A stretch of DNA of 64,000 bases from Minisyncoccota bacterium. Lineage in GTDB: Bacteria > Patescibacteriota > Minisyncoccia > Phycocordibacterales > UBA6065. The position numbers and the translations under genes were made by a program. The notes beneath the pieces were generated by a model. That model ran no database searches. It was not told where the DNA came from and saw only the letters and a program-made list of their open reading frames with translations. The stretch spans positions 1,830-65,829 of the forward strand of contig DAORIX010000002.1 in the NCBI GenBank assembly GCA_035438745.1, read 5' to 3'. Shown here piece by piece: positions 5,364-16,639 of the stretch (its first letter is position 1; the number at the start of each line of letters is the position of its first letter).

Positions 5364-5831
5364 TTACTGAATAGAAAGTATTTTATAAGCAATTGCCCCT
5401 TTTGGAGTTGTAACAGATACTGAATCGCCCTTCTTCTTGCCAATGAGCGCCAAACCGAGTGGTGACTGATTAGAGATCTTGCCTTCATGTGCGTTCACCT
5501 CTTCTGACCCAACAATTTTAAATGAAGCCTCTCCTCCTCCAGATTTCTGAACTTTGATAGTAGAACCCATGCCGACAGAATCCGCATGACGGTCTCCGAC
5601 AATTTCAGCTGTTTTGAGTGTGTCCTCGATAATAGCGATACGGTTTTCAATAGTAGCCTGCATTTCACGTGCCTCCTGATACTCTGCGTTCTCGGATAGA
5701 TCTCCGAGTGAACGTGCGTATTCGAGATTTTGAGCAACCTCTCGACGCTTAACCGTCTTTAAATCCTCAAGTTCTTTTGAAAGCTCTGCAAACTTCTCCT
5801 TGGTAAGGTACTTTATATTTTCCATAGACAT
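5364..5831 (-). CDS. greA: Transcription elongation factor GreA
   Basis: 155 aa with an N-terminal coiled-coil bearing acidic residues and a C-terminal FKBP-like domain. Typical GreA length. Confidence 0.85.
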   Translation of the reverse strand: MSMENIKYLTKEKFAELSKELEDLKTVKRREVAQNLEYARSLGDLSENAEYQEAREMQATIENRIAIIEDTLKTAEIVGDRHADSVGMGSTIKVQKSGGGEASFKIVGSEEVNAHEGKISNQSPLGLALIGKKKGDSVSVTTPKGAIAYKILSIQ

Positions 5832-5905
5832 TGATTAAGTAATGGAAAGATAATAACGTATTTTTTAGTAAAAGGCAAACAACCCTCTCCTCTGCTCAAA
5901 AACGA

Positions 5906-7612
5906 CTACTTGAGATACTCAGGAGTATACAACTCCATCCAATCGAGCATCTCTCTCATAACAAACGTACCTCCATATATATTGGCACGTGGACCACTTT
6001 CCATAATAACCGCAAAGGCATAGCGGGGGTTTTTATAAGGGAAAAAACCAGTAACCCATGAGTTTACATTCTGCTTCGACACACCAAGCTCCGCCGTTCC
6101 TGTCTTTGCAGCAACCTCAACATACGAAACATTGAGACCTGATGCACTACCTATTGTTGCACCCATACGCATACCCTCTTTAACAACATTAAACTGATCT
6201 TGAGTGAATGGTAATTCGAATCGTTTTACCTCATTACTTGATGTAGCTACACGTAAAATTGATGGCTCGAGTAATGATCCGCTATTTGCAATAGACGCCG
6301 TACCACGAAGTATTTGAAGAGGAGTTACTTGAAAACCGTACTGTCCGATTGATGTGAAATACGTATCACCGATACGCCACGGATCACCCGGAAATACTTT
6401 TTCTTTCCATGCGGGCGACGGTACTACCCCTGCAGGACCCGCAAAGAAAGGATGAGTCTGCTCCTTTCCAAAACCAAAAAGAGACAGATATTCATCGATC
6501 GCTTGAATACCAAGACCTTTTTGTTTTTCAAAACCTCCACCAATTTGATAAAAATAGACGTCTGAAGAAACCGCGATCGCCTTGCGCATATCAACTGACC
6601 CGTGATTTTTCCAATCATTAAATACCGTCTTTTTTGTTGGATCATACGGATTTTGAATAGAAATTGAACCCGTGGTAACTATTTCCTTGTTCGGATCAAT
6701 AATATTTTCAGAAAGCGCAGCGAGTGCCATGTATGGTTTTACAATAGAACCAGGCGTATAGAGTCCGGTAAGAAACCTATCAAGAAATGGTTTTCTTTTA
6801 TCAGTATTGTACTCAGAAATAGCAGAACGATCGCCCGATGAAAGAGCTTGGCTATCGTATTCTGGGTAACTCGTCATTGCAATAATTTCGCCCGTCTTCA
6901 CATCAATGATACCTCCCGCTCCTCCCGTAAAACCAACACGGGGCGCAAGCTCTTCTATGTATTCATACAACTTTTTCTGTAAACGTGAATCGATAGATAG
7001 ATAGACGTTTTGCCCAGTAATAGCCGGCTCAACAACCGAACCAGATTGCACCTCACCCAAAGCGTCTGTTTCAATAATTTTGAGACCGTGCTCTCCCTTG
7101 AGAAGATCGTTATAAATTTTTTCTACGCCCTGAACACCCTCAAAATCTTTTCTAAAATAAAAACCATTTTTGTCTTTTGATGGATACCGTATGTAACCAA
7201 GCACATGAGCAAACCCTTTGTCTCTAATATAATTGCGTTCCGAAAAGTCCTCGTCTTCTGTATGTGTGGCATTCCATACCAAACGAACGCCATTGCGATC
7301 AAAAATAGCGCCCCTATCAGCAAAAATAGTTTCGTGTAAAAGTCGATTATTTTCACTCCGTGCCGCATACACTGCCCCATTTTTGACTTCGAGAAACCAT
7401 GCACGCCCTATGAGAATCGCCACGAGTATACCAAAACAAGCCGACACGATAATCACCGCTGAAATGTTTATAGGTTTTTCGAGACGCCCTTCAAACTGAT
7501 ACGTATCAAACTGAGGAAGATTTTTTGAGTCAAGAAAAATCTCGTCCGGATCGATGTTGGCGGAACGAGAACTGAACCTTTTAGTAAAAAGTCTTTTGAA
7601 CGAAGAAAGCAT
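5906..7612 (-). CDS. mrdA: Penicillin-binding protein 2 (elongasome transpeptidase)
   Basis: 568 aa with an N-terminal TM, an SxxK motif (GSIVKP) and a KTG motif (AAKTGTAE). It lies directly downstream of mreB-mreC-mreD. Confidence 0.85.
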   Translation of the reverse strand: MLSSFKRLFTKRFSSRSANIDPDEIFLDSKNLPQFDTYQFEGRLEKPINISAVIIVSACFGILVAILIGRAWFLEVKNGAVYAARSENNRLLHETIFADRGAIFDRNGVRLVWNATHTEDEDFSERNYIRDKGFAHVLGYIRYPSKDKNGFYFRKDFEGVQGVEKIYNDLLKGEHGLKIIETDALGEVQSGSVVEPAITGQNVYLSIDSRLQKKLYEYIEELAPRVGFTGGAGGIIDVKTGEIIAMTSYPEYDSQALSSGDRSAISEYNTDKRKPFLDRFLTGLYTPGSIVKPYMALAALSENIIDPNKEIVTTGSISIQNPYDPTKKTVFNDWKNHGSVDMRKAIAVSSDVYFYQIGGGFEKQKGLGIQAIDEYLSLFGFGKEQTHPFFAGPAGVVPSPAWKEKVFPGDPWRIGDTYFTSIGQYGFQVTPLQILRGTASIANSGSLLEPSILRVATSSNEVKRFELPFTQDQFNVVKEGMRMGATIGSASGLNVSYVEVAAKTGTAELGVSKQNVNSWVTGFFPYKNPRYAFAVIMESGPRANIYGGTFVMREMLDWMELYTPEYLK

Positions 7613-7624
7613 GGGTACCCTCTA

Positions 7625-7879
7625 TTATACATTTCGTGCAAAACTTTTCTTGAGCCAAAAAGAAATGATCACTAAAATACCCCCGAGAATAAGCCCTGTA
7701 TAATGAAAATGATCTGAAGGTATACCAAACAAAACATCATAGAGACCTCCCCACAACACAAGTTCGTAAAAATTGCTTACAAAAAATATCCCCACAAGAG
7801 CAGAAATAAGTGCCACCCACCATGGCAAAAATAACAAGGAAACAATAATAGCGATGTTAACAGTGGTACGTGGACTCAT
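7625..7879 (-). CDS. Small polytopic membrane protein, possible minimal MreD
   Basis: 84 aa with 2-3 TM segments. Its position between mreC and mrdA is where mreD is expected. Confidence 0.4.
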   Translation of the reverse strand: MSPRTTVNIAIIVSLLFLPWWVALISALVGIFFVSNFYELVLWGGLYDVLFGIPSDHFHYTGLILGGILVIISFWLKKSFARNV

Positions 7880-7881
7880 GA

Positions 7882-8682
7882 TTATTGTGGCAAAGCAAAT
7901 ATATCGACAAAGTTGATATCATTAATATTGAAAGGACTTTTAAAATAAACGGTCTGAATGGATTCAGCTGAATCAGTCTCCACATATTCAACAATACCCA
8001 GAATAGAGACATTGATAGATGGAGCTTTTATGACATCACCCTTCTCAACGAGTACATCAATAGGAAGCGAGAGTATGAAATTACCTCCTCCACGGCCAAT
8101 AGCGGTACCAGACACAGATCGTGGTCCAATAAGCACAAGAGTTTCTTTACCTGGAGATGAGTAGAGTTCAACTTTTGATAGCGAATTTTCAACTTCAACA
8201 ATATCACCCATGAGGACTTGTCCTGGACCGTACACCTTGTCTCCAATCGACACCCCCTGTCTCAAACCCGCATCGAGAATGAGAGAGTCGTACGGAGAAA
8301 ATGGCGGGCGTCTGAGGACGACACCTAAAACACGAGAAACACCTTCTGATCTACCCAAGAGCTCCTTAAACTCTTCATTTTGTGCGACAACTTCAGCTAA
8401 ATACAGACGCTCAGAAGCAAAACGCTCACGCTCAAGAAGGAGCGCTTCGTTTTCTTTCACTAGAGATGACTTTGATTTCATTATTGCAAGAGCATTTTCA
8501 AAAGACCCTAATGCAAAAAATTCAAAACGCCATATCGGCGAAAAAACTTTTGACGTAATCGAAAAGAAAAAGTTGGGCGCAAGAATAAATCCAGATGCAA
8601 AAATAAACAACACAACAAAAGATACGAAAACATTGCGTCTCGCATTCGTTTTTGTACGGTTACTTGGTTGGAGGTAAGTCAT
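7882..8682 (-). CDS. mreC: Rod shape-determining protein MreC
   Basis: 266 aa with an N-terminal TM, a coiled coil and C-terminal beta domains. Its start overlaps the mreB stop. Confidence 0.8.
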   Translation of the reverse strand: MTYLQPSNRTKTNARRNVFVSFVVLFIFASGFILAPNFFFSITSKVFSPIWRFEFFALGSFENALAIMKSKSSLVKENEALLLERERFASERLYLAEVVAQNEEFKELLGRSEGVSRVLGVVLRRPPFSPYDSLILDAGLRQGVSIGDKVYGPGQVLMGDIVEVENSLSKVELYSSPGKETLVLIGPRSVSGTAIGRGGGNFILSLPIDVLVEKGDVIKAPSINVSILGIVEYVETDSAESIQTVYFKSPFNINDINFVDIFALPQ

Positions 8683-9724
8683 CTTCGCCTTGTATTAAAA
8701 TATCCCGATATTTACTAATGTCTTCAAGAATAATACCGGTACCTCGAGCAACAGCGGTGAGCGGATCTTCAGCAATATGAACAGGAATTTTAATATGTTC
8801 ACTGATGAGCTCATCGAGTCCTTTGATAAGCGCCCCTCCTCCTACGAGATAAACACCTCTGTGCATAACATCGGCTAGAATTTCTGGAGGAGTTGTTTCC
8901 AAAACCTCTCGAATTGACTCAACGAGGTGATCAATAGACTGTGATATTGCCTCTCGAATATCATCGTCAGTTACCACTACTTCACGAGGAAGACCTGTGA
9001 CGAGATCCCTACCGCGAATAGAAGCTTCGTGTGATTCACGTCCTGGCACAACAACACCAATCGCAATTTTCACTTGCTCAGCAGTTTTTTCTCCAATCAA
9101 AATCTTAAACTCGTTTCGAATATACGACATGATGTCGGAATTGAGTTTGTCGCCTGCTATCTTGAGACTTTTTGAGCGCACAGCACCACCGAGAGCGATA
9201 ACCGCAATGTCAGTAGTACCACCACCGATATCAATAACCATATTACCGACAGGTTCGTGAATAGGTAACCTAATACCAATAGCTGCCGCCATAGGCTGTT
9301 CAACAACATGCACCTCGCGAGCGCCAGCGTTTCGTGTAGCATCTCTCACAGCACGAGCCTCAACGTTTGTAACTCCCGAAGGAATACCTACAACAACACG
9401 AGGTCCAAAAAAAGTACGAGATTTTTTCTGTGCTTTATTCAAAAGGTAGACAATCATTTCCTCTGCAACTTCAAAGTCAGAAATAACACCGTCGACAAGC
9501 GGTCGCACAGCCACAATATGTCCCGGTGTCCTACCGAGCATTTCTTTTGCTTGTGTACCTACAGCAACTACACGACCAGTTTTCTGATTTACAGCTACAA
9601 CCGAAGGCTCGTTAATCACAATGCCTTGGCCGTTTACATAGACGAGCGTATTGGCAGTTCCCAAGTCGATGCCAATATCATTCGAAAACATTCGATACAG
9701 TTTTTCTAGAAAAGGTAGATTCAT
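8660..9724 (-). CDS. mreB: Rod shape-determining actin homolog MreB
   Basis: 354 aa with actin-fold phosphate motifs (IGIDLGTANTLVYV, VIDIGGGTTDIAV). Confidence 0.9.
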   Translation of the reverse strand: MNLPFLEKLYRMFSNDIGIDLGTANTLVYVNGQGIVINEPSVVAVNQKTGRVVAVGTQAKEMLGRTPGHIVAVRPLVDGVISDFEVAEEMIVYLLNKAQKKSRTFFGPRVVVGIPSGVTNVEARAVRDATRNAGAREVHVVEQPMAAAIGIRLPIHEPVGNMVIDIGGGTTDIAVIALGGAVRSKSLKIAGDKLNSDIMSYIRNEFKILIGEKTAEQVKIAIGVVVPGRESHEASIRGRDLVTGLPREVVVTDDDIREAISQSIDHLVESIREVLETTPPEILADVMHRGVYLVGGGALIKGLDELISEHIKIPVHIAEDPLTAVARGTGIILEDISKYRDILIQGEDDLPPTK

Positions 9725-13942: not shown

Positions 13943-14956
13943 TTACCTCTTGGCGATAATAGTCTTTTTGTATACGTCGAGATGGTCCATAGCAATACCT
14001 GTCCCCTTCACCACACAATAGAGAGGATCTTCGGCAAGCACGGCCTTTACTCCAGTGCGACGAAACACGAGCTCGGGGAGATTGCGCAACATTGATGAGC
14101 CTCCTGTCATAGTAATACCCTGATCAATAATATCTGCTGACAATTCTGGCGGAGTTTCTTGAAGTACGTCTTTGATAGCTTTGATCATATCTCGTAGCTC
14201 CCTACTAATCGCTTTTACAATTTCATTTGTTTTTATTTCTGTTGAACGAGGAAGACCTGAAATAAAATCACGGCCTTTAATAGTCATCACGAGCTCCTCT
14301 TCGAGAGGCACAGCAGAACCGATCTGCATTTTTATATCCTCAGCAGTCTTGTCTCCGATAGCGAGATTGAATGTTTTCTTTATATAGTCGGCGATAGCCG
14401 CGTCGATTTTGTTACCTGCGCATTTTACAGACGTAGACGACACGATTCCTCCGAGAGAAATAACCGCCACATCAGTAGTACCGCCTCCAATATCTACGAT
14501 CATGTGACCCTTTGCTTCATGAATAGGAATACCCGCACCAATAGCCGCGAGAATGGGCTCCTTTACGACGTATGCATTTTTTGCCCCTGCGTTAATGGCT
14601 GCCTCTACCACAGCGCGTCTCTCTGTTGAAGTGATGCCTGCGGGTACAGAGACGAGAACTTCTGGTTTCCACAAATTCCACTTACCGAGAGCTTTGTCGA
14701 TAAAGTATTTGAGCATCGCCTCAGTCACACGATAGTCGGCAATCACACCGTCCTTCATTGGTCGGTACGCAATGATTGATTCTGGAGTACGTCCAATCAT
14801 TGATTTTGCATCGAGTCCCACCGCCAAGATTTTGTTGTCTTGCTCAGAAACAGCCACAACAGAAGGTTCGTTGAGTACAATACCTTTGCCCGGTACAAAC
14901 ACGAGCGTGTTTGCGGTTCCCAAGTCGATTCCAAGTTTTTTAGTAAATAATGACAT
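13943..14956 (-). CDS. Second MreB-like actin homolog (MreB/Mbl paralog)
   Basis: 337 aa with LGIDLGTANTLVFV, VDIGGGTTDVAVI and related actin-fold motifs. It is clearly paralogous to the gene at 8660..9724. Confidence 0.85.
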   Translation of the reverse strand: MSLFTKKLGIDLGTANTLVFVPGKGIVLNEPSVVAVSEQDNKILAVGLDAKSMIGRTPESIIAYRPMKDGVIADYRVTEAMLKYFIDKALGKWNLWKPEVLVSVPAGITSTERRAVVEAAINAGAKNAYVVKEPILAAIGAGIPIHEAKGHMIVDIGGGTTDVAVISLGGIVSSTSVKCAGNKIDAAIADYIKKTFNLAIGDKTAEDIKMQIGSAVPLEEELVMTIKGRDFISGLPRSTEIKTNEIVKAISRELRDMIKAIKDVLQETPPELSADIIDQGITMTGGSSMLRNLPELVFRRTGVKAVLAEDPLYCVVKGTGIAMDHLDVYKKTIIAKR

Positions 14957-15103
14957 AGAGTGGCTATACTATACGCTTTTTTTACTGTTTTGCGATAGTT
15001 GACTGTTTGAATATATATGACTTGATTCTGTGTATAAACAACAGTTTACTAACATAGCATATATGCTATACTATAAAGACATTACTCTTTTAACACATCA
15101 GCC

Positions 15104-16639
15104 TTGCGTATGAAAAAAACAGAGGACACATTGATTGCTATAGGACACATGATTGCACGTTTGCGAGAAGACAGACGTATGACTCAGGCGGAGCTAGGAG
15201 AAAAAATCGGCACGACCCAGTCAGTTATTGCGCGCATCGAAAAAGGAGAACAAAACCTCTCTACTGAGTCCCTCTCAAAAATAAGTCAGGCACTCAACCA
15301 TGAAATACTCTCGCTCTCACGTGGAGGAACGGTCAATTTTCGTATAGAAGGTGGCAAAAAACTATCAGGATCAATACAAGTACGCACATCTAAAAATGGA
15401 GCGGTAGGAGTCATGTGTGCTTCCCTACTCAACAAAGGCAAGACGGTCATCAAAAATACTCCGAAAATCGAAGAGGTGTTTCGTATTATTGAAGTATTTG
15501 AATCAATAGGAGTAAAAATAGAATGGAAAGGAAATGATCTCCACATTACTCCACCAGAAACATTTTCTCTCAAAGATATTCACTACGAATCAGCTGCAAA
15601 AACACGCAGTGTCGTCATGATGATTGGTTCACTCATTCATCGAATGAAGAAATTTAACCTACCTCAAGCAAGCGGATGCAAATTGGGATCACGCACCATA
15701 AAACCCTACGTATACGCTCTCGAAAAACTTGGCGTCACCATTGAGACGAGCTCGCTGTATTACGAAGTTGAGCATCAAGGTCTCAAGAAAAATAGAGAAA
15801 TCATTATGTATGAGGCAGGTGACACAGTAACTGAGGCAGTACTCATGGCATCAGCACTCATACCAGGAACAACAGTGATTAAATTTGCCTCAGCAAACTA
15901 TCAGGTACAGGACGTATGTTTCTACCTCGAGCTTCTCGGTGTACGTATCGAAGGCATAGGCACATCGACACTCACCGTACACGGCCTCGACACCAGCGTA
16001 CAAAAAGATGTTGAGTACTTCTTGTCCGAAGACCCTATCGAAGCAATGTCTCTCATCACCATAGCGATAGTAACGAATTCATCGATAGTCATCGAGAGAT
16101 GCCCTATTGATTTTCTCGAACTCGAACTTCTCAAACTTGAAAAAATGGGCTTCAAGTACAAAATACTCAAACGCTACAAAGCAGATAACGGCAAAACAAA
16201 CCTCGTCGATATAGAAACAAAACCTTCAAAACTCACTGCGCTCACAGAAAAAATACACGCACAACCGTACCCAGGAATAAATATGGACAATCTTCCCTTC
16301 TTTGCGGTCATTGGTACCCAAGCAGAAGGCGAAACATTTATTCACGATTGGGTATATGAAGAACGAGCGATTTACTACAAAGAACTCGATAAGCTTCGCG
16401 CAGATACTATCCTCGCCGATCCTCACCGTTTTTATGTAAAAGGCCCAACAAAACTCAAAGCTACGGAAATTGTTTGCCCACCAGCATTACGACCATCAGT
16501 AGTACTCATGATTGCTATGATGGGAGCGCAAGGTACTTCAGTACTCAGAAATGTCTACAATATTAACCGTGGATACGAAGACCTTGCCGAGCGACTCAAC
16601 AAAATAGGAGCACACATAGAAACATTCAGAGACCTCTAA
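15104..16639 (+). CDS. murA: XRE-family HTH domain fused to UDP-N-acetylglucosamine 1-carboxyvinyltransferase (MurA)
   Basis: 511 aa. The first ~75 aa form a classical HTH_3 (RMTQAELGEKIGTTQSVIARIEKGEQNLSTESLSKISQAL). The rest aligns to MurA along its length, including the catalytic Cys loop (ASGCKLGSRTI) and C-terminal INRGYEDLAERLNKIGAHIE. Confidence 0.8.
   Translation: MRMKKTEDTLIAIGHMIARLREDRRMTQAELGEKIGTTQSVIARIEKGEQNLSTESLSKISQALNHEILSLSRGGTVNFRIEGGKKLSGSIQVRTSKNGAVGVMCASLLNKGKTVIKNTPKIEEVFRIIEVFESIGVKIEWKGNDLHITPPETFSLKDIHYESAAKTRSVVMMIGSLIHRMKKFNLPQASGCKLGSRTIKPYVYALEKLGVTIETSSLYYEVEHQGLKKNREIIMYEAGDTVTEAVLMASALIPGTTVIKFASANYQVQDVCFYLELLGVRIEGIGTSTLTVHGLDTSVQKDVEYFLSEDPIEAMSLITIAIVTNSSIVIERCPIDFLELELLKLEKMGFKYKILKRYKADNGKTNLVDIETKPSKLTALTEKIHAQPYPGINMDNLPFFAVIGTQAEGETFIHDWVYEERAIYYKELDKLRADTILADPHRFYVKGPTKLKATEIVCPPALRPSVVLMIAMMGAQGTSVLRNVYNINRGYEDLAERLNKIGAHIETFRDL

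Follow-up and report, generated by a model that had tools for sequence, protein, structure and literature searches.

A MurA enzyme fused to a helix-turn-helix domain in Patescibacteria and Actinomycetota, with a predicted operator at its own promoter

Trigger enzymes such as BirA (a biotin ligase and repressor), PutA (a proline dehydrogenase with an RHH domain) and NadR carry an enzyme and a DNA-binding domain in one polypeptide, with an operator at a promoter of their own pathway. MurA, the UDP-N-acetylglucosamine (UDP-GlcNAc) 1-carboxyvinyltransferase of cell-wall synthesis, is controlled in the best-studied bacteria mostly at the level of the protein, by proteolysis and by feedback inhibition with UDP-N-acetylmuramic acid (UDP-MurNAc). 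Here we describe a gene that joins an XRE-type helix-turn-helix (HTH) domain to a full-length MurA. It lies in a 64,000-nucleotide stretch of a Minisyncoccota genome (contig DAORIX010000002.1 of assembly GCA_035438745.1), hereafter the window. HTH-MurA shares its general layout with the trigger enzymes, and differs from them in the enzyme fold (EPSP-synthase/MurA), the DNA-binding fold (XRE HTH) and the pathway (peptidoglycan). Ligand-dependent DNA binding defines BirA and PutA, and is a putative trait of HTH-MurA. A comparison of the gene, its promoter and its relatives leads us to think that the protein is probably a bifunctional MurA enzyme and autorepressor, i.e. a trigger enzyme.

Three other groups of proteins are useful for comparison. 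In a search of the PDB the best solved matches of the HTH domain were C-proteins (C.BclI, C.AhdI and C.Esp1396I), HipB, SinR, the 434 repressor, HigA and ClgR, and also MBF1. The nearest solved relatives are dimeric, operator-binding XRE proteins. Dimers of the small ones bind palindromes over the promoters of their own genes; these proteins are 70-110 aa long, with the dimer interface in the HTH or a short tail, whereas in HTH-MurA the partner is a 430-aa enzyme. The best NCBIfam match of the HTH was the Y4mF antitoxin (41.8 bits, below the cut-off of 71.65). The layout is not that of a type II antitoxin: in the window the fusion lies between mreB and priA, with no gene for a toxin or a restriction-modification system beside it. 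A second comparison is the XRE-shikimate kinase PRK08154 (the 'anaerobic benzoate catabolism transcriptional regulator'), which likewise has an N-terminal XRE HTH on an enzyme fold. The window protein matches it weakly (30 bits, cut-off 204) and in the HTH region alone, and the enzyme domain is a different one. Finally, canonical MurA (E. coli, PDB 1uae; EC 2.5.1.7) has in common with the window protein the two-domain EPSP-synthase fold and the catalytic residues. The two are 26% identical, and the window protein differs in an extra N-terminal 75-residue HTH plus linker, an insertion and the replacement of Asp369 by Ala.

The fusion gene is found at 15110..16639 on the forward strand, stop included, and encodes 509 aa from its ATG. 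An alternative TTG start at 15104 would give 511 aa, and the open reading frame (ORF) is uninterrupted. The original prediction of an HTH domain of about 75 aa and a full-length MurA in one ORF is borne out by the ORF listing, Pfam and NCBIfam. The HTH domain spans residues 3-63 (15116..15298, forward strand), as judged from Pfam, predicted helices, conservation and the PDB relatives. The N-terminal region was searched with HTH profiles and HTH_3 matched residues 15-63 above its gathering score (E 6.6e-13, 48.9 bits, cut-off 23). An AlphaFold2 model, built from a 50-sequence alignment, has a mean predicted local distance difference test (pLDDT) score of 90 and a predicted template modelling score (pTM) of 0.83. 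It places helices at residues 3-21, 26-33, 37-44 and 52-61 (pLDDT 85-92), where residues 37-44 (QSVIARIE) are the recognition helix and T35-T36 lie just before it. A flexible linker of some 10 residues follows (residues 62-73, 15293..15328), which lacks secondary structure in the model and has low pLDDT, falling below 50 at residues 69-71. This agrees with the predicted junction near 15320-15340. The MurA domain occupies residues 76-506 (15335..16627); EPSP_synthase PF00275 matches residues 80-496 with E 3.4e-40, over profile positions 2-417 of 417. The MurA fold is complete in the model, with the catalytic loop 190-193 as its sole weak spot. A Foldseek search of the PDB gave no solved structure that spans both the HTH and MurA, and returned unfused MurA only.

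The MurA domain appears to be that of an enzyme. It matches the MurA subfamily model PRK09369 of NCBIfam over residues 76-506 with 318.6 bits (cut-off 297); the equivalog model PRK12830 gave 211, below its cut-off of 552. Residues 73-507 align end to end with solved MurA enzymes in a PDB sequence search, and Foldseek comparisons with solved MurA gave TMt values of 0.86-0.93. In an alignment with E. coli MurA (reference sequence from NC_000913.3) the equivalents of K22, N23, R91, C115, R120, Asp231, D305, R331, R371 and R397 are all kept. The motifs SKNG, KTRS, GCKLGSR, NMDNL and NRGYE hold Lys22/Asn23, Arg91, Cys115/Arg120, Asp305 and Arg397. The catalytic cysteine and fosfomycin target, Cys190 (E. 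coli Cys115), is in the GCKLGSR loop, with its codon at 15677..15679. Members of the fusion family also have about 11-14 extra residues that E. coli MurA lacks, at residues ~358-375 of the window protein (~16181-16234, ADNGKTNLVDIETKPSKL). This insertion is modelled as a beta hairpin and is present in fused and closely related unfused members, those of Streptomyces included. A role in dimerisation is conceivable.

The fusion is not a rarity of this genome. All 120 of the best homologues, from NCBI, JGI, ENA and Logan assemblies, carry both PF01381 and PF00275. They are 72-100% identical to the window protein, 495-550 aa long and come from many independent assemblies; an identical protein is recorded in the Patescibacteria metagenome-assembled genome GCA_964559755.1 (P0001). 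Among the Paceibacteria homologues the MurA domain is 72-86% identical. A wider search of 1.84 billion cluster representatives found fusions down to 32-35% identity, and also a few close relatives (four) that lack the HTH. Searched for in one genome per species, the recognition-helix peptide T[ST]QSA[VI][AN]RIE placed the fusion, as confirmed matches, in at least 591 species-level genomes. The best 80 of these (at least 591) loci belong to Saccharibacteria (including Nanosynbacter), Paceibacteria/Parcubacteria, Kaiserbacteria and Actinomycetota, the last with Streptomyces, Kitasatospora, Flexivirga and Pedococcus. Further lineages, i.e. Liptonbacteria, Taylorbacteria, Colwellbacteria and Doudnabacteria, came from a second protein search. 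The Nonomuraea fusion cluster has 246 members. The Streptomyces cluster, at 90% identity or more, has 4337, and all its listed members are 509 aa long. Across 83 related loci all 78 full-length genes are single ORFs of ~462-514 aa, and SKN and GCxLGxR are kept in 78/78.

This distribution also settles whether a frameshift or assembly error has joined a small XRE gene to murA. Hundreds of genomes (independent assemblies, isolates and complete ones), a Streptomyces chromosome among them, have the same single ORF, as does the 4337-member cluster, and we give an artefact practically no chance. In public annotation these proteins are labelled either 'helix-turn-helix domain-containing protein' or 'UDP-N-acetylglucosamine 1-carboxyvinyltransferase'. 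The original prediction knew of no characterised HTH-MurA. In line with this, our literature search found no description of HTH-MurA, its operator or its degenerate regulator form, in a search that left subscription journals mostly uncovered, so that an earlier description is possible.

The junction of the two domains has a feature of its own. Many fusions of Saccharibacteria and Actinobacteria have a methionine at the position where canonical MurA starts (e.g. SGKMNFKV and AGPMHLRV; four examples were noted, Nanosynbacter L046 and Streptomyces P0285 among them). In the window protein the residue at this position (~74-75) is valine (GTC). The junction methionine is possibly a relic of an ancestral start codon, or an internal initiation site for free MurA. 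An internal start giving free MurA was also considered for the window gene and rejected, as there is no in-frame start codon at the junction and the GGAGGA found there consists of Gly-Gly codons.

The HTH domain is strongly conserved. In 50 diverse fusions, reaching down to 35% overall identity, the residues R19, Q26, Q37, S38, R42, E44, G46 and N49 are invariant, and members with as little as 32% identity still have the helix T(T/S)QS(A/V)xxRIExGxQN. Both domains are genuine and maintained by selection. What the HTH binds can be asked in view of the gene next door. A mreB paralogue (13943..14956, reverse strand, 337 aa, Pfam MreB_Mbl) is divergent from the fusion gene and shares with it a 153-bp intergenic region, and the two genes adjoin in the same way in 11 other Paceibacteria-type loci. 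The cytoplasmic XRE-like HTH of RodZ binds MreB. By analogy, the fused HTH might be a protein-protein module that tethers MurA to the adjoining MreB paralogue (RodZ is discussed in a section of PMC9804626). The profiles point elsewhere: the window protein has no HTH_25 or RodZ_C match in Pfam at E <= 0.01, the isolated HTH has no RodZ chain among its PDB matches at E <= 0.1, and many DNA-binding XRE proteins do match. The layout is also not that of RodZ, as MurA follows directly after the HTH. Saccharibacteria, Actinobacteria and the loci of degenerate fusions described below have no mreB neighbour, and yet the HTH and a promoter palindrome are kept there. A tether would leave unexplained both this palindrome and the covariation of residue 36 with it. 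As a general explanation the tether was rejected, since mreB adjacency is confined to one clade, and we consider it very improbable.

The palindrome lies at the promoter of the fusion gene. A promoter scan identified a sigma-70-like promoter at 15045..15072 on the forward strand, with a -35 element TTTACT (15045-15050), a 16-nt spacer and an extended -10 element TGcTATACT (hexamer 15067-15072). The predicted operator, an 18-bp inverted repeat CATAGCA-TATA-TGCTATA at 15053..15070 for which the evidence is comparative, occupies the spacer and extends over the TG into the -10 hexamer. It contains the perfect 16-bp palindrome ATAGCATATATGCTAT (15054-15069), and its half-site centres are 11 bp apart, i.e. 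one helical turn. The same element was found in the first two related loci compared, where the intergenic DNA is otherwise unalignable and one locus has a different upstream neighbour.

For a broader view we examined the 100 nt before the start codon in 82 loci. The motif AT[AC]NC[AG]-N4-[TC]GN[TG]AT is present upstream of the fusion gene in 54/82 loci, from Paceibacteria, Saccharibacteria and Actinomycetota, and in 45 of these 54 it begins 25-28 nt before the ATG. In 684 kb of flanking sequence the motif matches 24 times, a background of 0.0035 per 100 bp. When the best 7+4+7 inverted repeat is taken from each locus, it is perfect in 30/82 and has 6/7 matches in another 30, compared with 0.5% and 17% for shuffled sequence. 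Most of these repeats are one motif, of the general form TATA[G/T]CA-N4-TG[C/A]TATA, with a version for each lineage: TATAGCA-N4-TGCTATA in the Paceibacteria type, TATATCA-N4-TGATATA(AT) in Saccharibacteria and ATCTCA-N4-TGAGAT in Actinomycetota. In the related loci, too, the right half-site overlaps TGnTATAAT. Where the site is 25-28 nt upstream the -10 element (TGATATAAT) ends ~8 nt before the start codon, which implies that these mRNAs would be leaderless or near-leaderless.

The flanking genes differ between phyla, so that only the fusion gene and the palindrome travel together. The neighbours are a mreB paralogue, holB and frr on one side and priA and def on the other in Paceibacteria, serine hydroxymethyltransferase (SHMT) and a glycogen-phosphorylase-like gene in Nanosynbacter, and aconitase in Streptomyces. 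The divergent mreB-fusion arrangement is found in 12/83 related loci, all of the Paceibacteria type and with the conserved order frr-holB-mreB2 <> HTH-murA-priA-def-fmt, and is absent from Saccharibacteria and Actinobacteria.

The half-sites vary together with the protein. Residue 36 adjoins the recognition helix and is either Thr (TTQS) or Ser (TSQS). Among loci with a clear site (at least 6/7 arm matches), Thr36 is paired with G at position 5 of one or both half-sites in 13/13 cases, and of both in 11. Ser36 goes with T or C at this position in at least one half-site in 42/43 cases, and never with G; the lone exception (L018) has A at position 5 and is a spurious, GC-rich site call. The split between G and non-G has a Fisher exact p of 5e-13, with kinship ignored. 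The pairing of Ser36 with T holds in lineages other than Saccharibacteria too (four such loci, three of them the degenerate-fusion loci L205, L206 and L208 described below).

An alternative is that the palindrome is bound by another regulator, or is a mere promoter feature, and that the fused HTH is an inert appendage of an old fusion. The right half-site does coincide with the extended -10, and the 16-mer occurs in many unrelated metagenomic contexts among the matches listed. Other factors are also known to act on Streptomyces murA2, namely BldM-WhiI, SigB and a predicted DmdR1 site. But an inert HTH is hard to square with a recognition helix that is better conserved across phyla than any other part of the protein and persists after catalytic loss. 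A motif that occurs only 0.0035 times per 100 bp in ~684 kb is no general promoter feature. Conservation extends to the left half-site, which varies in step with the right half and with residue 36. We judge this alternative distinctly unlikely.

Some distant fusions provide a natural separation of the two functions. Seven of them (e.g. P0130) lack Cys115, Arg120 and Arg91 and have variably lost Lys22 and Arg397, and have retained the HTH. The Cys loop is missing in 8/120 of the best relatives of P0130 and in 0/120 of those of the window protein. In 4/4 contexts the degenerate fusion and (murD-murE-murF-)murA-murB point away from each other, and ddl and/or a Mur ligase (murC) lies downstream of the fusion. 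The unfused murA of these clusters (reverse strand; L205 4275-5588, L206 8598-9914, L207 5619-6971 and L208 62-1360) has an intact Cys loop. In the two of the four that were compared it is ~25% identical to the fusion family, and equally to E. coli MurA. This identity rules out a recent duplicate that lost its HTH, and on the sequence comparison the unfused murA is best placed as a separate murA lineage in some Patescibacteria.

The intergenic regions shared by the degenerate fusions and the mur clusters measure ~60-70 bp in three loci and ~42 bp in L207 (with a corrected start codon). A predicted operator is found between -35-like and -10-like elements in each: TATATCATACATGATATA in L205, ATATATCATATATGATAT after TTGACA in L206, the symmetric variant TATAACTTATATGTTATA in L207 and TATATCATACACGATATA in L208. 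The HTH, the MurA fold and the operator have thus been kept after catalytic loss, which argues that a non-catalytic and apparently DNA-directed function is enough to retain the protein. A degenerate fusion of this kind looks like a local regulator of a mur cluster. Here, as in trigger enzymes, the predicted operator is at a pathway promoter, between the degenerate regulator gene and murD-E-F-murA-murB.

On the reading that we prefer, a bifunctional enzyme and autorepressor, two HTH domains would bind the two half-sites of the 18-bp repeat as a dimer. A bound operator over the spacer and the -10 would block RNA polymerase, and as the protein accumulates murA transcription would fall, resulting in negative autoregulation. 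In the Paceibacteria-type lineage the same site may affect the divergent mreB paralogue. The predicted operator is 97 bp from the start codon of this paralogue and just beyond a promoter-like element on the minus strand (15038-15010), so co-regulation is possible. The architecture, the intact catalytic motifs, the placing and conservation of the predicted operator, its covariation with the protein and the regulator-only descendants are computational results. For HTH-MurA we infer the binding to DNA, its repressing effect, the oligomeric state and any response to ligands.

The original prediction of an enzyme-repressor had named autoregulation or UDP-GlcNAc-responsive control of wall genes, with the dcw and mre loci to be looked at. 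The first part gains from the operator at the gene's own -10, the covariation and the degenerate relatives. For the second part, the sole good site in the window is the fusion gene's own. There is no second copy of the 16-bp palindrome in the window with up to 2 mismatches. A half-site scan with ATAGCA-N4-TGCTAT (up to 2 mismatches) gave 5 extra sites against 2.4 expected, i.e. chance level, and the best of these (1 mismatch, 39695) is inside an ORF. A regulon within the window was dropped on these grounds. The mreB/mreC/PBP2 cluster ~6 kb upstream has no site, and the only mre-type gene that shares an operator-bearing intergenic region is the divergent mreB paralogue. That cluster consists of a second mreB (~8573-9637, reverse strand, 46% identical to the 337-aa paralogue by tblastn), mreC (~7795-8595), an 84-aa ORF that may be mreD (~7538-7792) and PBP2 (~5819-7525).

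A further step would be for the autorepressor to sense metabolites. MurA closes around UDP-GlcNAc and is inhibited by UDP-MurNAc, and PDB entries of MurA ligand complexes are among the Foldseek matches of the window protein. The closure and the inhibition make it plausible that ligand state changes dimerisation or DNA affinity. The open/closed change of MurA with UDP-GlcNAc, UDP-MurNAc and phosphoenolpyruvate (PEP) would then let transcription follow precursor supply. We put this extension forward tentatively.

Several points weigh against an enzyme that represses its own gene. The MurA equivalog model TIGR01072 of NCBIfam scores 310.7, below its cut-off of 392.7, and the E. coli residue D369 is Ala family-wide, so that full catalytic equivalence with canonical MurA is not guaranteed by the sequence. 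MurA enzymes are generally described as monomers, and a palindrome needs a dimer; the AlphaFold model is of a monomer and uninformative on dimerisation. Only 64 kb of the genome is visible, and a second murA outside the window is possible. The pairing of Thr36 with G is largely that of one clade, and the statistic given above ignores phylogeny. There is no strict motif match in 28/82 loci, some of which have degenerate versions. Finally, the right half-site doubles as the extended -10, which partly explains its conservation; it is the left half-site and the covariation that carry the argument.

Some of these points would also suit a protein that is mainly a transcription factor, with the MurA-like domain as a ligand sensor or dimerisation module and the housekeeping MurA elsewhere in the genome. 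The TIGR01072 score is below the equivalog cut-off and 64 kb is all that can be seen, the degenerate fusions co-occur with a separate intact murA, and S. coelicolor has two MurA proteins, one of them MurA2 (PMC12161575). Against this, the window protein and all close relatives have intact catalytic motifs, and the 72-86% identity of the MurA domain in Paceibacteria is what one would expect of an essential enzyme. Neither a second murA nor another mur gene was found in the window, and catalytic loss is seen only where a separate murA adjoins (4/4). We think a protein that is mainly a transcription factor unlikely, and continue with the bifunctional enzyme and autorepressor.

A good test case for such a protein is Streptomyces. 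The fusion gene is divergent from aconitase in Streptomyces sp. NBC_00133. In S. coelicolor SCO5998 (MurA2) adjoins SCO5999 (AcnA), and two MurA proteins are listed (PMC12161575). The synteny with aconitase points to the Streptomyces fusion as murA2 (SCO5998 / sven5810 / vnz_28735), an identification inferred from gene order. The Streptomyces fusion is ~50% identical to the window protein over the N-terminal 135 residues. The equivalent of the operator, ATCTCATATCTGAGAT, is 27-28 nt before the ATG, within the promoter fragment CCATCTCATATCTGAGATAGC. The gene murA2 is a direct target of BldM-WhiI in late development (PMC4125116), has a SigB-dependent promoter (PMC8346170) and gives no phenotype in exploration assays when overexpressed (PMC11005364). 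In comparison with the window protein, MurA2 is a second, sporulation-associated MurA that is activated by BldM-WhiI and SigB. The passages on murA2 in PMC12161575, PMC4125116, PMC8346170 and PMC11005364 make no mention of an HTH and treat the protein as a plain MurA.

A second perfect palindrome was noticed in Streptomyces. The sequence ATCTCGATGTCGAGAT, which has the ATCTCA-N4-TGAGAT architecture, is 113-139 nt upstream of the acnA start in 6/6 Streptomyces loci (L077 3724-3739, L044 2673, L056 376, L069 1967, L074 1411 and L082 1778). It is present whatever the distance between acnA and murA2, which ranges from 0.3 to 3.6 kb. This could be a second target of HTH-MurA2 or the site of another regulator.

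The relationship between the fusions of different phyla is also of interest. The Nanosynbacter fusion (L046 3974-5497) is 63% identical to that of Streptomyces (P0285) and 53% identical to the window protein. Such values would fit a transfer of the gene between Saccharibacteria and Actinobacteria. Actinobacteria are known hosts of Saccharibacteria.

Another operator-like sequence is found within the gene. In ten loci AATATCAG(T/C)CTTGAGATG recurs inside the HTH-coding region, at +139 or +142 nt in the fusion gene. It resembles a half-degenerate operator. These are the codons of the conserved peptide QNISLEM, and constraint on the coding sequence probably accounts for the resemblance.

We also scanned metagenomes with the 16-mer ATAGCATATATGCTAT. 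The matches listed are mostly from unrelated contexts and are uninformative on a regulon; HTH-murA was present in 2/80 loci among them. About 10 of the matches are directly upstream of small XRE/HigA-like genes (80-166 aa, with most at 93-106 aa), where an autoregulatory site would typically lie. The recognition helix of these small proteins, GTKQSVISRLE, resembles GTTQSVIARIE of the window protein, and six of the proteins are 43-52% identical to the window HTH (tblastn).

In ten such loci ATAGCATATATGCTAT is at the start of the small XRE gene itself, and the products (80-106 aa) have an N-terminal extension (KLQPEF). In five others the 16-mer adjoins HigB/Gp49-like genes instead. Judging from their sequences, both sets look like toxin-antitoxin modules that use the operator of HTH-MurA. 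Elsewhere ATAGCATATATGCTAT is the core of a longer, GC-flanked palindromic repeat, AGCGCGCGATAGCATATATGCTATAGCGCGCT, seen in ~30 metagenome loci, many of them short contigs, e.g. in samples Ga0056131/Ga0056132, Ga0209681 and Ga0209788. The repeat probably belongs to the repetitive DNA of a single abundant organism and has nothing to do with murA.

In summary, what is newly described here is the conserved 18-bp sequence that we predict to be an operator at the promoter of the fusion itself. If the proposed autorepression is true, the committed step of cell-wall synthesis would be under direct feedback at the level of transcription. Patescibacteria, a very large radiation with reduced genomes and few regulators, would have this arrangement as their default. 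A broader view is possible, if somewhat doubtful: HTH-MurA may be an ancient and widespread metabolite-sensing transcription factor and enzyme, which serves as the main regulator of cell-wall precursors in the regulator-poor Patescibacteria and as MurA2 in Streptomyces sporulation, and which is the ancestor of pseudoenzyme regulators that use the MurA fold as a sensor.

The predicted operator and the rule that links residue 36 to base 5 are concrete reagents for electrophoretic mobility shift assays (EMSA), chromatin immunoprecipitation (ChIP) and reporter assays. In Streptomyces, where murA2 is a known late developmental gene and genetics are routine, the hypothesis is directly testable. The dead descendants beside the mur operons would be a clean natural example of the passage from enzyme to pseudoenzyme regulator. 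For specialists of the cell wall the surprise may be that the enzyme of the committed step has a predicted operator-binding domain across a major radiation of bacteria and in Streptomyces.

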